This document shows, in pieces, positions 8,982-34,043 of a stretch of 39,782 bases of DNA. The stretch lies in IMG/VR virus record IMGVR_UViG_2687453623_000005, one strand, 5' to 3'. A program made the position numbers and the translations under genes. How positions within the stretch are numbered: position 1 is the stretch's first letter; each line of letters opens with the position of its first letter. The notes beneath the pieces were generated by a model. The model worked only from the letters and a program-made list of their open reading frames with translations. It searched no databases and was not told where the DNA came from. The stretch comes from a virus (Duplodnaviria; Heunggongvirae; Uroviricota; Caudoviricetes).

Positions 8982-9941
8982 ATGAAAATTTGTATCGACG
9001 ACGGCTCCACCAACATCAAGCTGGCATGGACTGAGAATGGCGAACGCCGCAACGCCATCAGCCCGAACAGCTTCAAGTCGGAATGGTCTGCGCCGTTCGG
9101 TGGCATGCAGCCCGCGAACTACATGCTTGATGGCGTGCGCTATGGTTTTGATCCGGTTAGCGATCGCTTTGTCCAGACGACCGACACGCAATACCAGTAC
9201 AGCGATGTGAATGTAATCGCCATTCATCACGCGCTGGTCAAATCAGGCATCACGCCACAGGAGGTGGATGTGGTTGTCACCCTGCCACTGAGCGAGTATT
9301 TCGACACAAACGCACAGCCGGACATGGCCAACATCAACCGCAAAAAAGCGAACGTTATGCGCCCGGTGGAATACCAGAACGGCGAAGCATTCACTATCCG
9401 TAACGTGCGGGTTATGCCTGAATCCATTCCGGCTGGCTTTAAAGCACTGGCTGACATGAGTCCGTTTGAATCCCTGCTGATTGTGGATTTAGGCGGAACC
9501 ACGCTGGATGTGGCAAAGGTTCAAGGGCAACTGGCAGGTATCAGCCAGGTGTTTTGCGATCCACACGTAGGCGTTTCCCTGATGGCCGATGCCGTACTGT
9601 CGGTGATGGCCACTAACGGTATGCGCACCAGTCACCACATCGCCAATACCATTATCGAACATCGCCATGATGAAGCCTGGCTGCGCCAGCACATCCACAA
9701 TGACGCGCATTACGCCAGCCTGATGGCGGTTATTCGTGAAAAGGAAGAAACACTGAAACAACGCGTGATCCGCGCGCTGGCGGTTTTTTCGGGTTACGGG
9801 CGGGTGATGGTTGTCGGTGGAGGGGCGGAGATTGTGGCACCCGCTATCCGCGAAGTCTGCGGAGTTAATGCGACTTTCATCGCGGACGGGGTGCCACAGT
9901 TTGCTCTGGTTAATGGGCTGTACGCAATGGACAAGGAGTAA
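8982..9941 (+). CDS. parM: ParM/StbA-like actin-type segregation ATPase, 319 aa
   Basis: N-terminus MKICIDDGSTNIKLAW and later IVDLGGTTLD and VVGGGAE motifs align with plasmid R1 ParM as I recall it. Confidence 0.8.
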   Translation: MKICIDDGSTNIKLAWTENGERRNAISPNSFKSEWSAPFGGMQPANYMLDGVRYGFDPVSDRFVQTTDTQYQYSDVNVIAIHHALVKSGITPQEVDVVVTLPLSEYFDTNAQPDMANINRKKANVMRPVEYQNGEAFTIRNVRVMPESIPAGFKALADMSPFESLLIVDLGGTTLDVAKVQGQLAGISQVFCDPHVGVSLMADAVLSVMATNGMRTSHHIANTIIEHRHDEAWLRQHIHNDAHYASLMAVIREKEETLKQRVIRALAVFSGYGRVMVVGGGAEIVAPAIREVCGVNATFIADGVPQFALVNGLYAMDKE

Positions 9942-9945
9942 ACCA

Positions 9946-10260
9946 ATGACGACACCAACCAGACGGATAAGTTTCTATCTGAAGCCCGCCGCCGTCAAGA
10001 GTGAACAGGAGGCGTGCAATTACCTCGATAGCCTGCCAGCCTCCGAACGCAGCCGCGCGCAACGCGCGGCCTTTCTGGCTGGGCTAGCGCTCATAAAGCG
10101 CAACCCAGCATTTGCCTACTGGATGGCCGAATGGCCAGAGGACAACCTCCCCTTCAATACCGTTAGCATCAAGGAAACATACCAGGATAATCAGCCTAGC
10201 GGAGTTGAATGCAATTTTTATAAAATAAAAAAGAATATTCAGACCTTATTCCCAGAATAA
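9946..10260 (+). CDS. parR: ParR-like centromere-binding adaptor, 104 aa
   Basis: N-terminal segment ISFYLKPAAV...LDSLPASERSRAQRAAFLAGLAL resembles R1 ParR. ATG at 9946 with AGGAG ribosome-binding site. Confidence 0.7.
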   Translation: MTTPTRRISFYLKPAAVKSEQEACNYLDSLPASERSRAQRAAFLAGLALIKRNPAFAYWMAEWPEDNLPFNTVSIKETYQDNQPSGVECNFYKIKKNIQTLFPE

Positions 10261-10343
10261 TCTGATAATTGTATGTGAACTAATAAAATACAGACCAACA
10301 CATCATTCTGGCACCCTTGCTAACAGGGTGCCAATGTTTCAAA

Positions 10344-11186
10344 TCATGATGAAATTGCCGAAGTTTTTTTATCGTGCTGAAGTACCGCAAATGCCATTAA
10401 AACCTCAAGAGAATAGCGGCGATAATACTTAACAAAACCATAATAAAATACTCGGGATGCAGCAATACAAAACAAGAGAAGAAAACAAAAAGGTAACAGT
10501 CTGATATTTATATCTATTAAAAAGGATAGAAGGAGCAGGAACATAAGCAACCAGACTGAAGCGAGAAAAACAAATGTAATGTTTCTACAAAAACCATACA
10601 AAGCAACATAGTTTTGCATTTTCACCTGATGATTTTTAGAATGTTCATACACATAATGATAAGCAAGGCGAAAAAGATCGCCCCTCAAGCCCTTACGTCG
10701 ATATAGCGTAGATACAGAAAAAACATTTATATAACCATCTCGTATTTGCGGCCAAAAGACTTTAATAAGTATAGAATGCAGTGTGGTTTTATGATGTTCT
10801 GCTTTATCAAAAGCTGATACAGGAAATAAAAAAACTCCACGAATAAAATTAACTATACTGAACTTAGTATTATGTCGTTTTATTTTCAGGGAGCTTCTTT
10901 TAGAAAACAGATAAATTGAAGGATACCCAAGTTTACTGTTCATGTATTTTTCAATTAAACAGGATGATAGAATAGATATGAAGTGACCTGAAATATATGA
11001 TAGAACGATTAATACCACATATATAAATACACTTATTATTTCTTTATATTTCAGGATATGGTTAAGAATACCTTCTATATAAACAGGGTTAATTTCAATA
11101 GAAAACAAAAAAAGGATAAACAGGAATAACCCACCTGGAATTAGATAGCCCAAAAAGTCATAAAATGAAAACGGATTCTGTGTCAC
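10344..11186 (-). CDS. Polytopic membrane protein, 280 aa, unknown function, very AT-rich
   Basis: Multiple hydrophobic segments. GTG start preceded by GGGGGA. Downstream gene of a two-gene minus-strand operon. Confidence 0.6.
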   Translation of the reverse strand: MTQNPFSFYDFLGYLIPGGLFLFILFLFSIEINPVYIEGILNHILKYKEIISVFIYVVLIVLSYISGHFISILSSCLIEKYMNSKLGYPSIYLFSKRSSLKIKRHNTKFSIVNFIRGVFLFPVSAFDKAEHHKTTLHSILIKVFWPQIRDGYINVFSVSTLYRRKGLRGDLFRLAYHYVYEHSKNHQVKMQNYVALYGFCRNITFVFLASVWLLMFLLLLSFLIDINIRLLPFCFLLLFCIAASRVFYYGFVKYYRRYSLEVLMAFAVLQHDKKTSAISS

Positions 11187-11225
11187 ACTTCCCCCTGTGT
11201 TACTTGTAAATTAAAGGGTAAAACA

Positions 11226-11723
11226 TTATTTGTTTTTCCGTAAAGGATTAGCTTTCCATCTTCTTACTAACCATTCGAATTCTTGATATGTAGTATCCGA
11301 ATTAATGCTTTCTCTGATTGCTTTAATTAATGGCTCGGCAATATCATATGTCTCTACAACTGTTGTGTAAGATGTTCTTTTTATCATTTTTTCATCATAA
11401 ATACCTTCACGAATACTTACAGCAACTCGCTCGTAAAAATTTAAAATATATTGAAATTTTCGACGCTCGGCCATTTCTTCATCTGTTATTATGCAACCAT
11501 CACAAGGAAAAACATAAGAACGAAATGATTTGCCTGAACGATGCACTTGTTTCAGGGTATGCAATGACTCTATATATTGCATATCTTGCCGACTCTCAAA
11601 AAGAAAGTTGGCCGTTTGAGTTTTTTTTGCGGTACGCACATTGTAGATAATGGTTCCAATGGCAACCAAAACGCCAAGCAGAACAATAGCATTGCTGATG
11701 ATTTGTAGTGTTATTGGGTTCAT
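11226..11723 (-). CDS. Single-pass membrane protein, 165 aa: N-terminal TM helix plus soluble domain, unknown function
   Basis: N-terminus ITLQIISNAIVLLGVLVAIGTIIY is hydrophobic. Upstream gene of the operon. Confidence 0.6.
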   Translation of the reverse strand: MNPITLQIISNAIVLLGVLVAIGTIIYNVRTAKKTQTANFLFESRQDMQYIESLHTLKQVHRSGKSFRSYVFPCDGCIITDEEMAERRKFQYILNFYERVAVSIREGIYDEKMIKRTSYTTVVETYDIAEPLIKAIRESINSDTTYQEFEWLVRRWKANPLRKNK

Positions 11724-11743
11724 CCTATTTCATCCATAAAAAA

Positions 11744-11764
11744 GGCGGGGAGCAAATCCCCGCC
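11744..11764 (-). terminator. Hairpin GGCGGGGA-N5-TCCCCGCC with T-run on the minus strand; alternatively part of the cos region
   Basis: Seen directly. Partial resemblance to the G-rich P2/186 cohesive-end sequence. Confidence 0.35.
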
Positions 11765-11920
11765 TCATTAGAGGTCAACGTAGCTTAGAAACCATCAAAT
11801 TCATCATACATTTTTTTCATATCAACCCCCTCATAGAAATCATAACCACGTTTTGTGGTTTTTGTGACGTATAAACTACATCAAAGGCAAGCCACGGTCA
11901 AATATATAGGCATGCTTACC

Positions 11921-12019
11921 TGCACAAAAGTGCACAAATTTGCACAATTTTTTTGAACGACTTTTTACCCTTCCGGCCCGCATGGCGGCTGGATCCGTCA
12001 AGGATCCGTGCGTGCACAA
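11921..12019. repeat. Phased TGCACAA repeats (11921, 11931, 11941, 12013) plus a GGATCCGT direct repeat (11991, 12002)
   Basis: Seen directly; three copies at exact 10-bp spacing in a 700 bp non-coding stretch. Confidence 0.5.
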
Positions 12020-12446
12020 AAAAACGCGCTTTTTCTGCGCGCAGGTGACGGGGGAACAGCCCGCGTTTCAGGGGGTAAATAGCATTCCCTGAACGATGTC
12101 GCAGAGACACAACAGAATGGCCATATTTCTCACGCTGAGCATGAAAAAGGCGTGAGGGCTTTTGATTTGATGGGGTGAAAGGTAAGGCCGTCAAAATCGC
12201 ACTGAGGCAGCGAGAACATGCAGTCAACGCGGTGGAATTGCGTAAGAGTCTGACCGTCGATGGTGGCGATAAACTGGAAGGCGTCGTGAAATTATCTGAT
12301 TGATACAGGAGCTGGAGAGCCGGGGCATAAATTTTTTATGCCCCGGCGAAGCAGCAGACAAGCGAAGCGCGTCAGCGATACGGCACCTTGCCGACCATAC
12401 TTCATAAGTGCAAAATACGAGCAAAGAAATCAATGGAGGCTGTCTT

Positions 12447-12971
12447 ATGGTCATTAATTACAAGCAGTTAAGAGAAAAACGGGAGCAGGTAAAGGAGAGC
12501 TTTCGCCGCAATGAAGATCTGACCCCGCTTGTACGCCTTGCCCAGGGCATTGTTGATGCTTATGAAATCTCGCTGGAGCTGCCATCACAGACCTGGACAG
12601 ATAGCGACGGTAATCGCCAGCATTACGTTTCATGCGGACTGGAAGCAGCCGAAGGATTTCGCAGAATGCCTTTATCCCAGATCCCTGCCGCTACCCCCAA
12701 AGCACGGGGCAGCAATGATGAGCGAAAACTGACTTTTAGTATTGAAACGGTGGTTGACGACACACCTGGCGAAGTCGCGTTCGTGCACACTCCTGTTTCG
12801 ATCGCAATGTATAACGATGAAATACAGGTTCGCGTTAATAATAATATCGTGCCACTTAAAGAAGGTAATTCACCCTACACCACCGTTTGTGAAGCCATTC
12901 AATATTACGTTCTCTCTGAAATTGATAATCTCAAGCCTGACGGCACCCAGAAAATGGTTCAACTCTGGTAA
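12447..12971 (+). CDS. Hypothetical protein, 174 aa, between cos-like region and portal gene
   Basis: ATG at 12447 with GGAGG ribosome-binding site; followed by a bidirectional terminator. Confidence 0.55.
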   Translation: MVINYKQLREKREQVKESFRRNEDLTPLVRLAQGIVDAYEISLELPSQTWTDSDGNRQHYVSCGLEAAEGFRRMPLSQIPAATPKARGSNDERKLTFSIETVVDDTPGEVAFVHTPVSIAMYNDEIQVRVNNNIVPLKEGNSPYTTVCEAIQYYVLSEIDNLKPDGTQKMVQLW

Positions 12972-20598: not shown

Positions 20599-20740
20599 CC
20601 CACCCACATGGGGAAACCTCGGAATATGGGGCGACCGCCTTCTGGATGCACTGGAAACCTGTAACGCGGATAAACGGGCCATTGCTGAACTGGATAAGAG
20701 AATAGCCGAACTGACACACCAGACGGGAGTAACACAATGA
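20459..20740 (+). CDS. Outer-membrane lipoprotein spanin (LysC/Rz1-like), embedded in and extending past the i-spanin gene
   Basis: Lipobox LLTGC after a signal peptide; proline-rich segment PVTPPPFPDPP. Confidence 0.65.
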   Translation: MNAPTLCLTLVLLTGCAGTQNAPGPAPSVRLIPQTLTMPVTPPPFPDPPTWGNLGIWGDRLLDALETCNADKRAIAELDKRIAELTHQTGVTQ

Positions 20741-22614
20741 CCAGTAAGAACTTTGCACTGATTACAGCCATGACACAGGCTGAACTGACTCAAAAGGTGA
20801 ATGAACATCTTGCGAAAGGGTGGCATCTTCAGGGGGAGACGCGGGTTGCCTACGAACCCGGCACCCCGTGGTATCTAATGCAGGCAATGGTGGCCGATGG
20901 CACTACAGACATCTCACCTGATTCCCCCCAGCACGGCAGCGTGCCGGAGTGGTATTACGTGGTGGTACTTGCTGGTCAATCCAATGCCATGTCATATGGT
21001 GAGGGAATGCCGCTGCCGGATTCTTACGATGCGCCCCACCCACGCATTAAGCAACTGGCCCGTCGCAACACAGTGACTCCCGGTGGTAAAGCATGCGCAT
21101 TTAACGACATCATTCCGGCAGACCACTGCCTGCATGATGTTCAGGATATGAGCGCACTGAATCACCCGAATGCAGACCTGAGCAAAGGGCAGTATGGCTG
21201 TGTCGGACAGGGCTTGCATATTGCCAAACGCCTGTTGCCTTACATTCCACAGAATGCCGGGATTTTACTGGTTCCATGCTGTCGTGGTGGTTCGGCATTC
21301 ACCCAGGGCGCGGAGGGGACATTCAGCGAGTCCACAGGAGCCAGTCAGGATTCGGCTCGCTGGGGTGTGGGTAAACCTTTATATCAGGACCTGATTTTGC
21401 GCACGAAGGCCGCATTGCAGAAAAACCCAAAAAACATGCTGCTGGCCGTATGCTGGATGCAGGGCGAATTTGACATGAGCGCCGCTACGTACTCACAGCA
21501 ACCTCCGCTGTTTACGGCCATGCTGAAACAGTTTCGTGCGGACATTACCGAGTTTAACACGCAGTGTCATGGAGGCAGAGCGGCAAGTGTGCCATGGATT
21601 TGTGGTGACACGACGTATTACTGGAAAAACACCTACGGCACGCAGTACGACACCATTTACGGGGCGTACAAAAACAGGGAGAGCGACAACGTTTTCTTTG
21701 TGCCGTTCCTGACCGATGGTAGTGGCAACAATACCTCCACCAACGCACCAACGGAAGATCCGGATGCTGCAAGTGAGGGATATTACGGTTCGGCATCCCG
21801 AACGAACAAAAACTGGGTATCATCAAATCGCCAGACGCATTTCAGCTCATGGGCGCGTCGTGGCATTATTCCCGATCGTATGGCAACCGCTATTCTGAAC
21901 GTAGCCGGTCGCACCTTAGCCTTCATCAGTGGTAAGGCACCGGAAATCAAACCCTCGCCCGGCGGCGACACGCCATCGGGGCCGTCTGAAGATGCATCCG
22001 TACGCACAATCTCCCTGTTGCCGACAGCCGGAGATGCTGCTGCGCAGGGCTGGAGCATTAAGAATGGCGGAATTCAGTTGTCAGAGGGTGTATTTAAGAT
22101 CACCAAGCAGAGCAATAAAGCCTGGTCCCTGACGCGCCCGGTGGATGACGCAGTCTCCCTGCTGACACGGGGTGGCAGACTGAGCTGTAAGTTTCGACTG
22201 TCAGGCGCACTGACCAACAATCAGTTCGGTCTGGGAATTTATCTGTATACCGATGTAGCGTTACCTGACGTCGTGGCGATGACCGGGACTGGTAACCCGT
22301 TCCTGATGTCGTTCTTCACCCAGACCACAGACGGCAAACTGAATCTGATGCATCACAAGAAAGCAGGAAACACAAAGTTGGGCGAGTTCGGGAATTACAG
22401 TAACGACTGGCAGACGCTGGAGCTGGTGTTCACCGCCGGCAGTGCCACGGTTACTCCGAAACTGAATGGAGTGGCTGGCCCGGCATTCCAGGTCATAAAA
22501 GACAGTCTGACACTGGGGCTGAATGCGCTGACGTTAACTGATATCACTAAAAATGCCGCGTACGGCGTCGATATCGGCAGCCTGGTGCTGGAAATCAATA
22601 ATCCCGCAGCATAA
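20737..22614 (+). CDS. DUF1737 + SASA-domain sialate O-acetylesterase (NanS-p-like moron), 625 aa
   Basis: VVVLAGQSNAMSYGEG matches the GQSNM esterase motif. N-terminal 50 aa resemble DUF1737. Confidence 0.75.
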   Translation: MTSKNFALITAMTQAELTQKVNEHLAKGWHLQGETRVAYEPGTPWYLMQAMVADGTTDISPDSPQHGSVPEWYYVVVLAGQSNAMSYGEGMPLPDSYDAPHPRIKQLARRNTVTPGGKACAFNDIIPADHCLHDVQDMSALNHPNADLSKGQYGCVGQGLHIAKRLLPYIPQNAGILLVPCCRGGSAFTQGAEGTFSESTGASQDSARWGVGKPLYQDLILRTKAALQKNPKNMLLAVCWMQGEFDMSAATYSQQPPLFTAMLKQFRADITEFNTQCHGGRAASVPWICGDTTYYWKNTYGTQYDTIYGAYKNRESDNVFFVPFLTDGSGNNTSTNAPTEDPDAASEGYYGSASRTNKNWVSSNRQTHFSSWARRGIIPDRMATAILNVAGRTLAFISGKAPEIKPSPGGDTPSGPSEDASVRTISLLPTAGDAAAQGWSIKNGGIQLSEGVFKITKQSNKAWSLTRPVDDAVSLLTRGGRLSCKFRLSGALTNNQFGLGIYLYTDVALPDVVAMTGTGNPFLMSFFTQTTDGKLNLMHHKKAGNTKLGEFGNYSNDWQTLELVFTAGSATVTPKLNGVAGPAFQVIKDSLTLGLNALTLTDITKNAAYGVDIGSLVLEINNPAA

Positions 22615-22637
22615 GGAAGAGCAGGAGAGCAAAACAG

Positions 22638-28632: not shown

Positions 28633-29159
28633 TTATTCAGGCTTTTGTGGCCATTCAGGATTTGCCGTATCCACACGGTTGACCAGAACACTGTAGCGTT
28701 CCCATGCTTCCAGTCGTGTGCGTTCCTCGTCTGTTGCCATATTCAGCCTGACAGCGCGTTCCAGCGGCTGGATGACTGATTCAGCTTCGGAAAGCAATGC
28801 GGCCTTTTGTGATTCGGCCTGTTGTTGCTGTTCGTCAGCCGTATAAATCCGTTTAACCACAGCTCCGTCCTTAAACATCCACTTACCGGAATCATCGGTC
28901 CGACGATTGGCCGTTATATCGGGAACCTCGACGACGCTAAAACCTTCGGGATTAAGCGTGGAGGCATCTCTGGTGATGGCGACAATAATATTATTTTCAT
29001 CGTAAACAATCTTTATGGTGTCTGGCTGAAAGTTTTTCACTTCCTCATACCAGTTTTTTCCGTCCTCAGAGTAAAGCCAGATAACTCCGTGTTTCTTTGT
29101 TAACTCATACTGTTCAGTGTTTTAGCATTACCCGCTTTTATGTTCTTTAAGTGCATCAT
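28633..29159 (-). pseudogene. Alternative tail fibre assembly gene (tfa'), frameshifted near its 5' end
   Basis: Reverse strand begins [14 protein letters not shown], then a stop; the out-of-frame continuation matches the plus-strand Tfa. Confidence 0.6.
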
Positions 29160-29990
29160 ATTAATCGCTCTTTTACAGTGCATTATATACTTTGAACGGT
29201 CTGTAATAAACACCCGCTATATTATCGCAGAGTTAGACCCTGTATCCTGAACATTAATACCAGACAATACATGACTGAAGGCACTGGAAATTCCATGTTC
29301 GCCAGTTGTTCACTCCATAATATTGCTGTAACCAAGTCGAACATCTTTCACATAACGGAATCAAACCGTAATCGAGATTAACACGCCCGTAATATGTCTA
29401 TACGAATGCCGGGACAGCGCATTCCATGTACTGAACAGCATGAACAGTACCGCCAAGAGCGAATACCTGTAATACAACCTGAGTTCACCATTCATTGTAC
29501 CAGCAGATAACGCAGTGCACCAACATCTCCTGCTGAAGGTTTTCTGGTGGTGGTGTAAAATTCGGACCAGTCGCTTTCAAAACCATAACCATCACGGGCT
29601 GAACGATAAAAAATACCGCCATTTTTATAATTAATCCGAAACTGAGCTGCAGGACAACTTCCGTCTCCATATAAAAATGAATAATTAACGTTGATGCACC
29701 ACCAATATTTGCGTTATAGGCTCCGCTACTCCAGTTCCATCCAACTGCTTTATCACCATTAACGGTGCTTCCTGTTTTCCTAAGGCAAACGCACCAACAT
29801 GACTTGCTTTTAATGTGATATCGGAGGAACCATCAAAAGCCACATTGCTTATTTTCCTGGCAGTTTTTAATTTTGCAGCTGTAGAAGCATTGCCGGATAG
29901 TTCACCAGAAAGGCCACCGCTGAATGTTTGTCGATTAGTCCAGGTATTCGCTGTACTGAGTAACGGTATTTTCTCCCCGCTTGTGCCGAG
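29160..29990 (-). pseudogene. Alternative tail-fibre C-terminal variable region (H'), disrupted by at least two frameshifts
   Basis: Reverse-strand translation matches the plus-strand H C-terminus in three different frames. Only a 61-aa ORF (29485..29670) survives. Confidence 0.5.
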
Positions 29991-30070
29991 TTCTCGTAAA
30001 CCGAGGTTTTAAATAATGGCCGTTTCTGGCCTGCATGGCATGATTTGCGCTTTTGGACGGGAGATTCAGT

Positions 30071-30670
30071 GTGCTGATTGGCTATGTAAGGGTATCAACA
30101 AATGACCAGAATACAGACCTGCAACGAAACGCTCTTGTTTGTGCAGGATGTGAACAAATATTTGAAGATAAATTAAGCGGGACAAAGACAGACCGACCGG
30201 GATTAAAACGCGCTTTAAAGCGCCTTCAAAAAGGTGACACGCTGGTTGTCTGGAAACTGGATCGCCTCGGGCGAAGCATGAAACATCTGATTTCTCTCGT
30301 CGGGGAACTACGGGAGCGAGGGATTAATTTTCGCAGTCTGACCGACAGCATAGACACATCTTCTCCAATGGGGCGTTTTTTCTTCCACGTGATGGGTGCC
30401 CTGGCTGAAATGGAACGTGAATTAATTGTTGAACGTACACTGGCCGGGCTGGCGGCAGCGCGCGCAAGGGGGCGCACAGGCGGACGTCGACCGAAGCTGA
30501 CAAAAGAACAGCATGAGCAAATAGCAAGGCTAATCAAAAACGGGCACGACAGAAAACAACTGGCAATAATTTACGGCATTGGCACATCGACGATTTATCG
30601 TTATCACCCTGTAGGCGATATACAGACTGAAGAAACAACCGGGCAGACTCAGGAAAATGAAAACCGCTAA
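30071..30670 (+). CDS. Serine recombinase, DNA invertase of the Gin/Pin/Cin/Hin family (GTG at 30071; track ORF starts at TTG 30053)
   Basis: LIGYVRVSTNDQNTDLQRNAL...LVVWKLDRLGRSMKHL is near-identical to Mu Gin and e14 Pin as recalled. Confidence 0.95.
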   Translation: MLIGYVRVSTNDQNTDLQRNALVCAGCEQIFEDKLSGTKTDRPGLKRALKRLQKGDTLVVWKLDRLGRSMKHLISLVGELRERGINFRSLTDSIDTSSPMGRFFFHVMGALAEMERELIVERTLAGLAAARARGRTGGRRPKLTKEQHEQIARLIKNGHDRKQLAIIYGIGTSTIYRYHPVGDIQTEETTGQTQENENR

Positions 30671-30690
30671 TCTGACCATTAGCGGTTTTT
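30662..30690 (+). terminator. Intrinsic terminator after the invertase
   Basis: Hairpin AACCGCTAAT-N6-ATTAGCGGTT followed by a T-run. Confidence 0.55.
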
Positions 30691-30698
30691 GTGTTAAA

Positions 30699-31193
30699 TC
30701 AGAACAGCCCTTTAACTGAACTGGCCGCGCTGTTAAGAGATGATGTCACCTTATCTTTGAAGCCGGACAGCATATCACTGAACGATGAGGATTGCAGGCG
30801 CTCCCGCAAATCCTCATCACAGCGTTCAAGAGTCAGTGAAAATTCTATCTTTTTCGCCTTACCGTAGCGATCAAACTCGGAGCGGGTCGTATTCGTTTCA
30901 GTCAGGACATACATGCCGTAAATCTGCCCGACGCCATCAATCAAAGGCCAGGGTCGTCCTGTATACGCCTGCGTGGTCAGCAGCGACAGCGACACTTCGC
31001 CACCTGTAATTTCAGGATAAAGCACACCAGAAAGAACGATGCGATCATCACCTGCACCGATATACTGCCAGCTTGCTGAACGGTTAACGCGTTCATTTTT
31101 CACATGCCGCCAGCTTTTGTTTTGCTGTAACTGCTGATGCGGCAGCGTGCGCAGCTCAAAAACAAACATGCCGTAGATCATCATCATGGCCAT
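30699..31193 (-). CDS. U: Tail protein, P2 gpU-like
   Basis: Size and position downstream of the tape measure gene. Confidence 0.8.
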   Translation of the reverse strand: MAMMMIYGMFVFELRTLPHQQLQQNKSWRHVKNERVNRSASWQYIGAGDDRIVLSGVLYPEITGGEVSLSLLTTQAYTGRPWPLIDGVGQIYGMYVLTETNTTRSEFDRYGKAKKIEFSLTLERCDEDLRERLQSSSFSDMLSGFKDKVTSSLNSAASSVKGLF

Positions 31194-31199
31194 GACTCC

Positions 31200-34043
31200 T
31201 CAATCTTTATCGTAAAAACTGCCACGCCCGGCACGGGCGCGCCGTTCCATTTCTGCCCTGACCATTTCACCGACCAGTTTCGCCAGTTCGCGGGGATTCT
31301 GCGTAACAACGTTATGCAGATGAACATGAATTTCACCACCAAATCCGGAGGCAACAGGCTCCCGGTTACGGGAAGTTACAGGAACTGATGCCACTGGAGA
31401 TCGTATAGCCTCCGCCACCGGGCGGGAGCTGGCCGCAACAACAGGGACCAGCGCCGGAGGCAGCGGAGCCGGGACCACGGGTGTGATATTAATTGCGGGG
31501 GCAGGCTTACTGACCTGCGCAATCTTCCGCTCCTGCCACTCCCCACGAACAGCAAGTGCTCGGGGCAGGTTTTTAAAGACAATATCGCCGGGGCCAATGC
31601 GTTTTTTCGTCTCCTCAACCAGCTTACCTGTGTTATCAGCAATTTTGCTGAGTCTGCGCAGCGTACCGGTATTGCTGTCTGTGAGCGGTTTATTGTCTTT
31701 GGGGTTATCACCTCCGGTGCCATTGCCATTTTCCACAGGCTTCGGCGGATTGATTTTCGCCAGGTCCCCCTGAAGCAAGGCAACCTTGTCCTGAAGAATG
31801 GCCGCACGCTGTGCGTCTTCGATTTTCTTGCGCGCCCTTTCCGCTTCATCCGGAAGCACACCAAGCTTTTCAAGTATCCACGCCAGCGTATCCAGCAACA
31901 TTTTTGCAGGTGTCAGAACAAGTTGTAACGCACCGCCAAGAACGTTACCGAATATCTCGCCAGCACTGGTACATTTATCCAGAGTTTCCTTGCTGGACTC
32001 CATCGGAGACAGCAGCGATTTAAACCAGTTAAACACCTGGCTGATCCCACTCCCGATTGCGTCAAAAACAGGACCAAACCGTTCAAAGGTTTCGCGCAAC
32101 GGGGTCAGCCTTTCCATAATCCCGCTGAACACCCCGGCAAAAAATGCCCTGATGGGATCCCAGTATTTCCAGATGAGAACGGCAGCTCCGGCAAGCGCAG
32201 CCACGATAAGGCCGACCGGACTGAACAACGCCCCGATAGCGCCCCCCAGTAACGAAACGGAACCCGTCACCATTCCCCATAGTGCTGGCAGGAGTCTGAC
32301 AGCATTCATTGAACCGGTCAGGAGGGAAAAGCCAAGACGCAGTTTTGCCAGCGGGCCAGCAAGCACACCAATAGCCAGCGACAACGAGCCAACCGTTGCA
32401 GTCATTGCCAGCAACGCACCGCCTGCTATCAGTAGCTGGCGCGTCAGTACCGGATGGGCCTGCGCCAGCGAGGTGATTTTTTCAAGCACCCGCGTGAGCC
32501 ACTGCGTGACAGAACGCAGCGGACCGTCAACCAGATCACTGATGCGAATACGAAGACCTTCCCATGCGCTGTCGAGATTTTTCAGGTCCCCATCAAGATT
32601 ATCGGCCATTACTTTTGCAACGCGATCGGCCTCTCCCCTTGCCCCCTGCAATTCTCTGGTCAGTTTTTGCAGCTCTCCTGAACCAGCCGCCGCAACAAGC
32701 GTCTGCAAACCAACGAACGCCTCTTCTCCGGCGATGTCCTTGAAGAAGGAAACCTGGTCCACCTGTCCGTATTTTTGTGTCGCCTTATAGAGATCAAGCA
32801 GCACATCCTCCATCGGGCGCATTTTGCCTCTGGCGTCAGCAACTGACACCCCCAGCTCTTTCAGCGCATCAGCCGCAGCTTTTGGCGGTGATGCAAGGCG
32901 GGACAGACTTGCGCGCATGGCCGTACCAGCATCGCTTCCACGAAGACCATTATTGGCAAGCATCCCGGCCATGGCTGCCGCTTCTTCAAGACTGATACCA
33001 AGTTTTGCGGCAACCGGACCGGTATACTTCATGGTTTCGCCCAGCGCGCGTAAATCAGTATTGGTCCGGGTGAATGCCGCTGTCAGCGTATCGCCAACCC
33101 GGTCCATTTGATCGGCTGTCAGGTTGAACTGTGTGAGGATATTGGAGCCTATATCAGCCGTCTCGCCGAGTTCGACGCCACCTGCCAGCGCCATATTAAG
33201 AACACCGGGCAATGCGGCCTGAATGGCCTGCGGAGTAAAACCAGCCATTGCCAGAAAGCTCTGCCCACTGGCGGCATCACTCGCAGTAAACTGTGTTTCA
33301 GAGCCAAGTTTTAACGCCTGCTCACGCAGCGCCTTAAACTGCGGGCTGTTTTTGTCGATTCGCGTCAGCGCCTGAACGCGGGACATCTCTTTGCCGAACC
33401 CGATCGCGGGCTGCAAAAAACGCCCGGCAGCATAGCCGCCCGCCGCTGCCGCACCAATTGCCAGCGCACCACCTGTTTTCAGTTTTCCCGCGGTTTCCTG
33501 CGCGCGCGAATACCGCTCACGAGCCTGCGTTACACGCGCAAGCGCCTGCCGTTCGCGTTCAAGCTGGTTGTTGTATTGTTCGGTGCGTCTGATGGCCTGC
33601 TGGATGGTGTTATCGCTGCCTGTCAGGGAAATGCCGTGGCGTTTCAGTTCTCCGCCAAGCTCCCGCATTTTCTGAATTTCCCGTGTGCGCGATTCATTCA
33701 GGCGTTCAAGCCGGGTGCTTAACTGCTGCATCAGCTTTTGTTGTTTTTCGCTGAGCACTGTACCCGTGCGTTGTAACTGATTAAGGGCGTTAAGCTGGCG
33801 TCGTGCTTTCACGATACCCGCATCCGCTTTACTGACAGCGTCGCGGGCGCGCTCAAATGAACGCGCCTGACGCTCGAGATTTTTGATCGCCCCCTGCGTT
33901 CGCTGAATGGAGTCACCAAACTGCCCCATCAGGCGGCGGGCGTTTTCGGCAGGCCGGGTCAGCCTGTCAACGGCGCTGAAAGCGACCCGGATGTCAAGAG
34001 TCTTCATTATCTGCATTCCCGCTGCGAAGTGCCGCCCGCTCAC
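31200..34043 (-). CDS. T: Tail tape measure protein, P2 gpT-like, 947 aa
   Basis: Length, coiled-coil N-terminal region, Gly/Ala-rich hydrophobic middle. Confidence 0.9.
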   Translation of the reverse strand: MSGRHFAAGMQIMKTLDIRVAFSAVDRLTRPAENARRLMGQFGDSIQRTQGAIKNLERQARSFERARDAVSKADAGIVKARRQLNALNQLQRTGTVLSEKQQKLMQQLSTRLERLNESRTREIQKMRELGGELKRHGISLTGSDNTIQQAIRRTEQYNNQLERERQALARVTQARERYSRAQETAGKLKTGGALAIGAAAAGGYAAGRFLQPAIGFGKEMSRVQALTRIDKNSPQFKALREQALKLGSETQFTASDAASGQSFLAMAGFTPQAIQAALPGVLNMALAGGVELGETADIGSNILTQFNLTADQMDRVGDTLTAAFTRTNTDLRALGETMKYTGPVAAKLGISLEEAAAMAGMLANNGLRGSDAGTAMRASLSRLASPPKAAADALKELGVSVADARGKMRPMEDVLLDLYKATQKYGQVDQVSFFKDIAGEEAFVGLQTLVAAAGSGELQKLTRELQGARGEADRVAKVMADNLDGDLKNLDSAWEGLRIRISDLVDGPLRSVTQWLTRVLEKITSLAQAHPVLTRQLLIAGGALLAMTATVGSLSLAIGVLAGPLAKLRLGFSLLTGSMNAVRLLPALWGMVTGSVSLLGGAIGALFSPVGLIVAALAGAAVLIWKYWDPIRAFFAGVFSGIMERLTPLRETFERFGPVFDAIGSGISQVFNWFKSLLSPMESSKETLDKCTSAGEIFGNVLGGALQLVLTPAKMLLDTLAWILEKLGVLPDEAERARKKIEDAQRAAILQDKVALLQGDLAKINPPKPVENGNGTGGDNPKDNKPLTDSNTGTLRRLSKIADNTGKLVEETKKRIGPGDIVFKNLPRALAVRGEWQERKIAQVSKPAPAINITPVVPAPLPPALVPVVAASSRPVAEAIRSPVASVPVTSRNREPVASGFGGEIHVHLHNVVTQNPRELAKLVGEMVRAEMERRARAGRGSFYDKD

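Follow-up and report, generated by a model that had tools for sequence, protein, structure and literature searches.

The virus record IMGVR_UViG_2687453623_000005 (Caudoviricetes), whose 39,782 nucleotides (nt) are called the window below, carries on its minus strand two adjacent genes for a DUF4760 protein and a Csx27-like protein, preceded by a leader with a short conserved open reading frame (micro-ORF) and a terminator-like hairpin. We read this unit as a self-contained accessory ("moron") cassette of two separable single-gene modules, tightly gated, membrane-associated and serving defence or exclusion, and put the probability of this reading at about one half. The two genes, given with their lengths in amino acids (aa) and their transmembrane (TM) helices, are as follows.

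11226-11723, minus strand: DUF4760 gene (protein 1), ATG start, 165 aa, one N-terminal TM helix and a predicted cytoplasmic all-helical domain
10344-11186, minus strand: Csx27-like gene (protein 2), GTG start, 280 aa, about four TM helices and a conserved cytoplasmic domain of ~125 aa

A preliminary description of this stretch had reported the same two ORFs, and their coordinates, lengths and start codons are confirmed. Hydropathy analysis likewise bears out its single N-terminal TM helix in protein 1 (residues 8-26) and its polytopic protein 2. The site is indeed the P2 tin/old hotspot that it named, namely the gpA-gpQ (old/tin) position of a P2-like prophage. The G+C fraction (GC) is 0.349 in the DUF4760 gene and 0.317 in the 280-aa gene; the window as a whole has 0.519, and gpA, parM, parR and the portal gene range from 0.50 to 0.58. 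The cargo is so far below its surroundings that it appears compositionally foreign, in agreement with the separate acquisition proposed earlier. By contrast, the end of the unit, formerly placed at 11770, has to be moved, since the transcription unit reaches ~11901 upstream and takes in a promoter, the micro-ORF and the terminator. Nor is the pair "membrane-only", because both proteins have sizeable predicted cytoplasmic domains.

Pairing and separability of the two genes

A search of 5,426 complete E. coli genomes located each cassette gene at 292 places in 289 genomes, and the two are adjacent in all E. coli loci inspected. They are separated by a 39-nt gap, in which the Shine-Dalgarno (SD) sequence AGGGGGAAG precedes the GTG of the 280-aa gene and no terminator is predicted. 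The pair is also kept in a divergent O111:H8 allele, where the 280-aa gene is 79-92% identical at the nucleotide level and the DUF4760 gene with its leader 97-100%. Both genes are under purifying selection: when two E. coli alleles are compared, the ratios of nonsynonymous to synonymous divergence (dN/dS) are 0.07 and 0.26. Their synonymous divergences (dS), however, are very different (0.285 vs 0.039), which indicates a mosaic with separate histories.

Within 5 kb of DUF4760, a homolog of the 280-aa protein was found in none of 30 species-representative loci. The DUF4760 genes of these loci are low-GC single-gene units that lie in the P2 hotspots of other genera, at other prophage positions or between housekeeping genes. 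On viral contigs, the partner is missing from 51 of 60 DUF4760 loci, ~20 of them P2 hotspots, and the nine loci that have it are all at least 99% identical and belong to the E. coli clade; a Providencia prophage also carries a DUF4760 homolog alone. The same holds from the other side, as 65 of the 74 viral loci seeded with the 280-aa protein are without DUF4760. A 44%-identical homolog of this protein, indexed in more than 2,000 assembly-collection blocks, stands alone in lambdoid prophages (L002-L005), and another adjoins xis/int (L007-L009). The pairing is thus confined to one E. coli lineage, and the simplest reading is that two independently mobile modules were joined there into one operon. 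With the partner missing at this rate, the two-gene operon of the preliminary description becomes doubtful as a system, and its genes should be considered singly as well as together, with guilt-by-association assessed for each gene.

A conserved leader upstream of the DUF4760 gene

The leader consists of the following parts, in the order of transcription.

11873-11901, minus strand: sigma-70-type promoter with -35 box TTGACC (11901-11896), 17-nt spacer and -10 box TAGTTT (11878-11873), read from the sequence
11844-11860, minus strand: stem-loop AACCACAAAACGTGGTT in the 5' untranslated region, from a hairpin scan
11785-11832, minus strand: SD GAGGGGG (11832-11826) and the 11-codon micro-ORF MKKMYDEFDGF (ATG at 11820, TAA at 11787-11785), recognised by conservation
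11770-11778, minus strand: conserved anti-SD-like box TTGACCTCT, lying after the micro-ORF stop and ahead of the terminator, the "AACCTC" column block of alignment A4
11736-11766, minus strand: intrinsic-terminator-like hairpin GAGGCGGGGATTTGCTCCCCGCCTT followed by T6, with a 10-bp stem of which 7 pairs are GC, 13-18 nt before the DUF4760 start (ATG 11723)

A micro-ORF ending in D-E-[FY]-[DE]-[GW]-x-stop, followed by a hairpin, lies upstream of DUF4760 at all 21 genome loci. Of the viral loci, 52 of 57 also have the micro-ORF before DUF4760, and each of these 52 motif-bearing loci has a GC-rich hairpin after it (stem of 7 or more, with one mismatch at the most) that in most cases carries a T-rich tail. 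The conservation extends to proteins of only ~39% identity and to contexts outside phages. The hairpin stems vary by clade (GGCGGGG, GGCGGAG, CGGGGCC, CGGAGGC, TGGAGGC) yet remain complementary, and in alignment A4, which covers closer relatives, the stem pairs of the terminator are almost invariant. Among 30 unique core sequences, synonymous third positions are free (GAC 11/GAT 17; GAG 17/GAA 12; GGT 11/GGC 12; TTT 7/TTC 17) whereas the amino acids are kept, which argues that the micro-peptide is translated and under selection. The motif has a single instance in the window. Because the terminator ends 13-18 nt before the start codon, the DUF4760 and Csx27-like genes must be expressed by read-through. 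This micro-ORF with its hairpin provides a concrete, mutable regulatory handle and is itself an unannotated element in many phage genomes.

The remaining parts of the leader are described more cautiously. The pattern TTGACy-17-TAnTTT was seen by eye, as an uncounted observation, ahead of the micro-ORF in a number of species and settings (L010-L015); a generic promoter scan did not pick TTGACC-17-TAGTTT, and the promoter at 11873-11901 is presumed active from its boxes. A 5' hairpin at the same position and of different sequence is visible in several upstream sequences (e.g. L011, L012, L015), also uncounted. In a single-sequence minimum-free-energy fold the ACCUC box pairs with the SD region of the micro-ORF, and the box at 11770-11778 may be a candidate for anti-SD control. 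An Rfam search of the leader gave nothing above noise, and a literature search for the micro-peptide gave no match.

Separately, an IS421 element (an IS4-like insertion sequence) was found inside the terminator hairpin of the leader at L295 (NZ_OX637964.1, ~2025-3300), at L046 (3700-3960) and in H17/H18 (strain LS4). The insertion removes the 5' arm of the hairpin and parts the promoter and micro-ORF from DUF4760, making a natural regulatory mutant in an isolate of sequence type 131 (ST131), in strain LS4 and on one viral contig.

The micro-ORF beyond DUF4760

When viral contigs were scanned with a degenerate DNA pattern for DEFDGF-stop, at least 120 stretches matched, compared to an estimated ~10 expected by chance, and 13 of the 81 stretches analysed precede DUF4760. 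In phiV10/TL-2011b-like E. coli phages, "MHDEFDGF" with a GCCGCC hairpin lies just upstream of terS. The micro-ORF "MKKKRMNDEFDGF" precedes the gene for a 174-aa protein, and a 21-aa version precedes an SbcD-like nuclease gene in phages of more than 100 kb. Another form, "MKDEFDGF", overlaps the stop codon of the preceding gene (ATGA), so that translational coupling is possible. In the phage records checked, these micro-ORFs carry no small-gene annotation of their own. Further loci with such a micro-ORF include L176, L193, L202, L207 and L221. The micro-ORF with its hairpin is an element in its own right, one that DUF4760 genes almost always carry, and it could be either a regulatory leader or a functional micro-peptide.

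The DEFDGF-COOH end resembles the C-terminal tails of T7 gp2.5 (...DEDGDF) and gp4 (...NDTDF), which are acidic with an aromatic end. The tail of E. coli SSB (...DDDIPF) is likewise acidic and Phe-terminated, like the core of the micro-peptide. This likeness to the tails of single-stranded-DNA-binding and replication proteins extends over a 6-residue motif and is offered as a lead.

The DUF4760 protein

The preliminary description recognised no enzymatic motif and no nameable defence system in the pair; both proteins do have a recognisable family, protein 1 belonging to Pfam DUF4760 (PF15956) and protein 2 being Csx27-like. Residues 12-156 of protein 1 match model positions 2-141 of 141 with 119.3 bits against a cut-off of 25. 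Moreover, the two proteins match PHROG profiles at 7.7e-74 and 1.1e-71, respectively, with hundreds of homologs; both ORFs are real genes and not chance ORFs. The TM helix of protein 1 is followed by a K/R-rich segment, and the protein is therefore predicted to be N-out and C-in.

The AlphaFold2 model of protein 1 is all-helical, with a predicted local distance difference test score (pLDDT) of 92. Structural similarity search using Foldseek placed EDS1-family chains at the top by both probability (0.99 and 0.94) and TM-score (0.5-0.6), at E-values of 0.18 or more, which are not significant, and the sequence identity to the EP domains of EDS1, PAD4 and SAG101 is 6-10%. The resemblance was obtained by two methods and is reproducible but moderate, and we describe protein 1 as a single-pass membrane-anchored helical domain with a putative EP-like fold. 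In plants, the EP domain of EDS1/PAD4/SAG101 is the receptor module for the TIR-produced signals pRib-AMP/ADP and ADPr-ATP. DUF4760 has a TM anchor where the EDS1-family proteins have an N-terminal lipase-like domain, and in the loci inspected, which were not searched specifically for TIR, no TIR gene adjoining DUF4760 was noticed. The invariant basic residues of the family are K34, R45, R68, K115 and R137. If confirmed, the EP-like fold would link the receptor module for TIR signals in plants, whose origin is unclear, with a family of prokaryotic or viral proteins.

Other comparisons of protein 1 were less informative. A fold search of BFVD gave nothing of use, its rank 2 being a "holin family" protein at an insignificant score. 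Alignment with hhalign against the 1-TM proteins of the "2TM+1TM+TIR" (AC1) and "RT-nitrilase+1TM" systems validated by Rousset et al. was negative. A third homolog search, made with the profile, gave close relatives only, among the best 120 matches listed. One candidate fusion of DUF4760 with PF06541 (P0109) was discarded as an apparent chimeric metagenome assembly, whose tail, after an unrelated protein, closely matches E. coli sequence.

DUF4760 with its leader, and with the promoter too in the loci read, was also found as a low-GC island of less than 1 kb among ordinary chromosomal genes (L012, L015 and L023 in Enterobacter; L028, L033; L018, L020), for example after a 12-TM transporter gene or nrdB-yfaE-like genes, with no obvious mobility gene nearby.

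The Csx27-like protein

The hydrophobic stretches of protein 2 are compatible with four TM helices, which flank a central loop of ~125 residues predicted to be cytoplasmic because it is K/R-rich. Besides phrog_12528, the protein matches the PADLOC model of Csx27 with an E-value of 1.1e-5 over model positions 4-179 of 206. The same model is matched by 52 of 71 diverse members of the family (best 1.3e-8), 16 members also match "tm_4", another type VI-B associated model, and no other TM model recurs. As negative controls, hhalign comparisons of the family with the membrane proteins of the "HP+4TM" and "Hydrolase+3TM" systems of Rousset et al. gave nothing. Taken together, the profile matches point to a remote homology to Csx27 at the family level.

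Profile search with protein 2 gave 1,114 cluster representatives, nearly all of 270-300 aa and full length, and the family has no Pfam match. Its invariant polar residues are D10, E79, R201 and K253, with H68, H177, E181 and H186 near-invariant; the whole invariant or near-invariant set comprises F6, D10, Y14, Y64, G67, H68, S74, E79, P89, H177, E181, H186, K189, N192, R201 and K253. This set of polar and aromatic residues looks more like a ligand- or partner-binding site or a catalytic site than a simple pore.

Csx27 is an accessory membrane protein of type VI-B1 CRISPR-Cas13b systems (Smargon et al. 2017), and it repressed Cas13b in heterologous assays. Both Csx27 and protein 2 have several hydrophobic helices, whereas protein 2 differs in its length of ~280 aa, its large conserved cytoplasmic insert and its occurrence as a prophage moron. 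Across 42 kb around the cassette, RefSeq annotates prophage and chromosomal genes only, with no cas13b, CRISPR array or other cas gene, and for this reason we call the protein Csx27-like and not Csx27; the reported repression of Cas13b would have no obvious target at this locus. If confirmed, the link would open a much larger family for studying the poorly understood Csx27.

Prior record and distribution in E. coli

The cassette had been called undescribed in the preliminary description, but the exact pair is entry #3 of Table S5B of Rousset et al. 2022 (Cell Host Microbe, PMC9122126), "System #3: DUF4760", in which both protein sequences are identical to those of the window. The entry counts 1,102 occurrences in the P2 gpA-gpQ hotspot, so that only two other cargoes of this E. 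coli defence hotspot were commoner in the survey, and its Phobius remark, "1 TM in protein 1, 4 TM in protein 2", agrees with the hydropathy result above (PMC9122126). Its usual arrangement includes StbA and Plasmid_stab_B, as does the present locus. System #3 is a catalogue entry only, in which function, regulation and family relationship are not given. Neither protein sequence occurs in the text of the table of cloned and tested systems, and as far as that text goes the cassette appears not to have been experimentally tested by Rousset et al.

In the literature searched, no functional study turned up for DUF4760, for the WP accessions or for the peptide motif; the WP accessions occur in no main text there, and the sole paper that names DUF4760, otherwise unrelated, puts it in a genomic island of a disinfectant-resistant Serratia. 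The supplements of Vassallo 2022 contain no match. The cassette is therefore already catalogued and common, apparently without a test of function. Not described before, as far as the searched literature shows, are the micro-ORF/hairpin leader, the separability of the genes, the relation of protein 2 to Csx27 and the EP-like fold of protein 1.

The source prophage is P88-like (Xuanwuvirus, P2-family) and is integrated beside dmsA in E. coli, e.g. in the ST131 strain JJ1887; E. coli hosts of the prophage thus include ST131. The full 2.4-kb region (coverage of at least 80%) was found in 289 of 5,426 complete E. coli genomes, or 289 of the 1,440 that match part of the query region. The cassette is accordingly carried by ~5% of complete E. 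coli genomes, the pandemic ST131 lineage included.

Proposed working and rival explanations

In the proposed working, module 1 comprises the promoter, the 5' hairpin, the translated micro-ORF, the terminator-like hairpin and the DUF4760 gene for a single-pass (N-out, C-in) EP-like protein. Module 2 is the Csx27-like 4-TM protein with its conserved cytoplasmic domain, elsewhere a solo moron of lambdoid prophages; being placed 39 nt behind DUF4760 in the E. coli lineage, its gene falls under the DUF4760 leader. In the lysogen the promoter would fire and most transcripts would stop at the terminator, giving the micro-peptide only and very low levels of the membrane proteins. Altered ribosome handling of the micro-ORF, by arrest on DEFDGF-stop or by changed SD/anti-SD pairing, would then let RNA polymerase read through. 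The membrane proteins so made might block a superinfecting phage at the inner membrane, by abortive infection or exclusion.

A defensive role is a reasonable inference, as the cargo of P2/P4 hotspots is largely defensive: Rousset et al. found 3 of 8 extra P2 systems plus old-tin to be active (PMC9122126), and 6 of 8 unknown P4 loci were protective (PMC13586616). That at least one of the two genes gives an anti-phage phenotype is, in our estimate, slightly favoured over the opposite. The cassette shares its genomic niche with P2 old/tin, with no homology to old, tin or the PADLOC models, and it resembles lambda RexAB and other sensor-plus-4TM abortive-infection pairs by functional analogy, in combining a cytoplasmic-domain protein and a 4-TM protein from a prophage; unlike those pairs, it is not conserved as a pair.

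We advance only tentatively, with the odds leaning somewhat the other way, that the leader works as a conditional attenuator. In common with leader-peptide attenuators such as tnaC, ermCL, speFL and mgtL, it has a strong SD ahead of a short ORF, a peptide conserved at the amino-acid level and a terminator-like hairpin before the gene. It differs from them in that the stop-hairpin spacing is long, the same unit stands before unrelated genes, and neither Rfam nor the literature offers a match.

Several observations weigh against parts of the scheme. As the preliminary description had also concluded from the sequence, no characterised defence system is recognisable: Pfam, NCBIfam, PADLOC and PHROG scans matched no characterised defence model or function, and PADLOC-DB v2, with old, tin and Rst models included, gave only the Csx27 accessory protein and a weak PDC-S35 match (E 0.014). 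The same hotspot carries non-defence cargo (parMR), and DUF4760 also forms a tiny island between housekeeping genes. For the proteins, the EP-type match is at non-significant Foldseek E-values and PDB sequence-profile searches found nothing; the AlphaFold2 model of protein 2, from a 14-sequence alignment, has a pLDDT of 57 and is too poor to use; and, according to the literature, the mechanism of Csx27 is not established and its membrane localisation is not confirmed in E. coli. For the attenuator, the micro-ORF with its hairpin also precedes terS, the SbcD-like nuclease gene and others, so that it may be an independent micro-gene and not a DUF4760-specific sensor. The distance from stop codon to hairpin is 15-46 nt, which, given the ribosome footprint, seems more than a ribosome terminating at that codon could bridge to mask the hairpin directly. 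Finally, no antiterminator structure was convincing; RNAalifold gave a covariation term of only -0.79, and the fold z-score is -1.99.

Among the alternatives, the cassette might be a lysogenic-conversion or stress module and not defence, in which translational stress (ribosome-targeting antibiotics or toxins, ion limitation) induces the genes through the leader peptide in the manner of erm, cat or mgtL and alters envelope physiology or tolerance. A leader peptide followed by a terminator, as found here, is a layout typical of stress- or antibiotic-responsive attenuators, and the small chromosomal islands outside prophages and the island of disinfectant-resistant Serratia fit such a role. However, both families show strong enrichment at accessory sites of prophages and in the P2 hotspot, the Csx27-like relationship points to immunity-linked proteins, and the profile scans recognised no transporter or enzyme family, which makes this explanation rather unlikely. 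Quite unlikely, too, is the obligate two-component system that the preliminary description implied, working only as a whole, with DUF4760 as the cytoplasm-facing sensor or adaptor and the Csx27-like protein as the 4-TM membrane effector in RexA/RexB style. It would account for the joint presence of both genes in 289 of 5,426 genomes (292 places, the whole 2.4-kb region in 289), for the 39-nt gap with an SD and no predicted terminator, and for a pair whose genes are both under purifying selection and stay together even at 79-92% nucleotide identity of the Csx27-like allele. It does not fit the lack of adjacency outside the E. coli clade (30/30 species loci; 51/60 and 65/74 viral loci), solo DUF4760 units that bring a leader with them (in the loci read, a promoter as well), the separate AT-rich upstream regions of solo Csx27-like genes, or the differing dS values, which point to separate histories.

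We regard as improbable a toxin-antitoxin or addiction module complementing ParMR, in which an abundant acidic micro-peptide (or DUF4760) neutralises a toxic membrane protein and the internal terminator sets a high antitoxin-to-toxin ratio. The micro-ORF is under peptide-level selection and lies upstream of the terminator, which would put the peptide in excess over the downstream protein; parMR adjoins the cassette, and the invariant K34, R45, R68, K115 and R137 of DUF4760 might conceivably bind an acidic Phe-ending peptide. Yet the same micro-ORF precedes non-toxin genes (terS, the SbcD-like nuclease gene), DUF4760 units in other P2 hotspots are mostly without parMR, and the Pfam and PADLOC scans matched no toxin-antitoxin family. 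It is scarcely credible that the cassette serves ordinary phage needs in lysis, in structure or as a replication accessory, or that it is decaying junk DNA. Small phage membrane proteins are often holins or spanins, and the rank 2 BFVD match, at its insignificant score, is to a "holin family" protein; against this, the prophage has a complete P2-type lysis cassette elsewhere (holin, M15 endolysin, LysB/LysC), Pfam and PHROG scans match no structural or lysis family, most P2-like phages are without the cassette (289 of 1,440 partly matching genomes carry it), and purifying selection acts on both genes, neither of which is broken. On these grounds we rejected a role in lysis or structure.

The defence or exclusion cassette of two separable modules also has a more far-reaching form, which we consider a long shot. 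In it, the kinship of DUF4760 with the plant EDS1/PAD4 EP domain would be genuine, and this bacterial and phage protein would serve as a receptor, tethered to the membrane, that senses either a small immune signal or an acidic peptide tail; the DEFDGF micro-ORF would be a new class of ribosome-sensing leader or an SSB-tail-like micro-peptide that gates or antagonises the receptor; and this minimal one-gene sensor-effector would have gained the Csx27-like effector in E. coli P2-like phages.

Neighbouring features of the prophage

The genes around the cassette run in the order gpA, parM and parR (all plus strand), the cassette (minus), ~650 nt of non-coding DNA, an ORF at 12408-12971 (plus), and the portal and terminase genes (minus). 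The placement of the cassette between gene A and the cos/portal region in the preliminary description is hence right for the region, but parM/parR intervene after gene A and the ORF at 12408-12971 comes before the portal gene. Downstream of the cassette genes lies one further feature.

10309-10333, minus strand: inverted repeat TGGCACCCT-GTTAGCA-AGGGTGCCA, read from the sequence, directly after the stop codon of the Csx27-like gene

The repeat sits between the convergent parR and Csx27-like genes and is possibly the 3' end of the cassette transcript; its role is uncertain because it has no T-run and the terminator scan did not call it. The ParM/ParR (StbA/Plasmid_stab_B) partition pair occupies 8982-10260 (plus strand), directly after replication gene A. 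According to Rousset et al. 2022 (PMC9122126), about a quarter of P2-like phages carry a ParM/ParR-type partition pair, possibly permitting episomal maintenance, and in the rows of their table inspected the StbA/Plasmid_stab_B pair accompanies the DUF4760 cassette.

The ORF at 12408-12971 (plus strand) encodes 187 aa from a GTG, or 174 aa as annotated; it matches phrog_5091, and Pfam, PADLOC and NCBIfam scans of it gave no match. The O111:H8 variant of the hotspot (L293) has no such ORF. Three TTGTGCA repeats, spaced by exactly 10 bp, lie directly ahead of the cassette promoter (11921-11947, minus strand). Similar repeats are present in the P2-hotspot copies of Xenorhabdus, Kluyvera and Dryocola (L010, L011, L013) and were not seen in the non-P2 contexts inspected; they probably belong to the P2-type backbone, perhaps a cos-proximal or terminase-binding region, and not to the cassette. 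Further upstream, a terminator-like hairpin (GCGCGC...GCGCGT with a T-run) at 12024-12042 (minus strand) points in the same direction as the P-Q late operon. Nowhere in the window is there a match to the canonical P2 cos 19-mer at up to three mismatches, so that the cos of this phage group differs or was not located.

Two more regions of the prophage were noted. A 625-aa protein annotated as "DUF6645 domain-containing protein" is encoded between the lysis and tail genes (30739-32616 of L001, ~20738-22615 of the window); P2 itself presumably has no gene at this position, which may be another cargo site. The tail-fibre region (38636-41554 of L001, ~28635-31553 of the window) is rearranged, with an IS1A insertion, truncated tail-fibre pseudogenes and an invertase-type recombinase gene.

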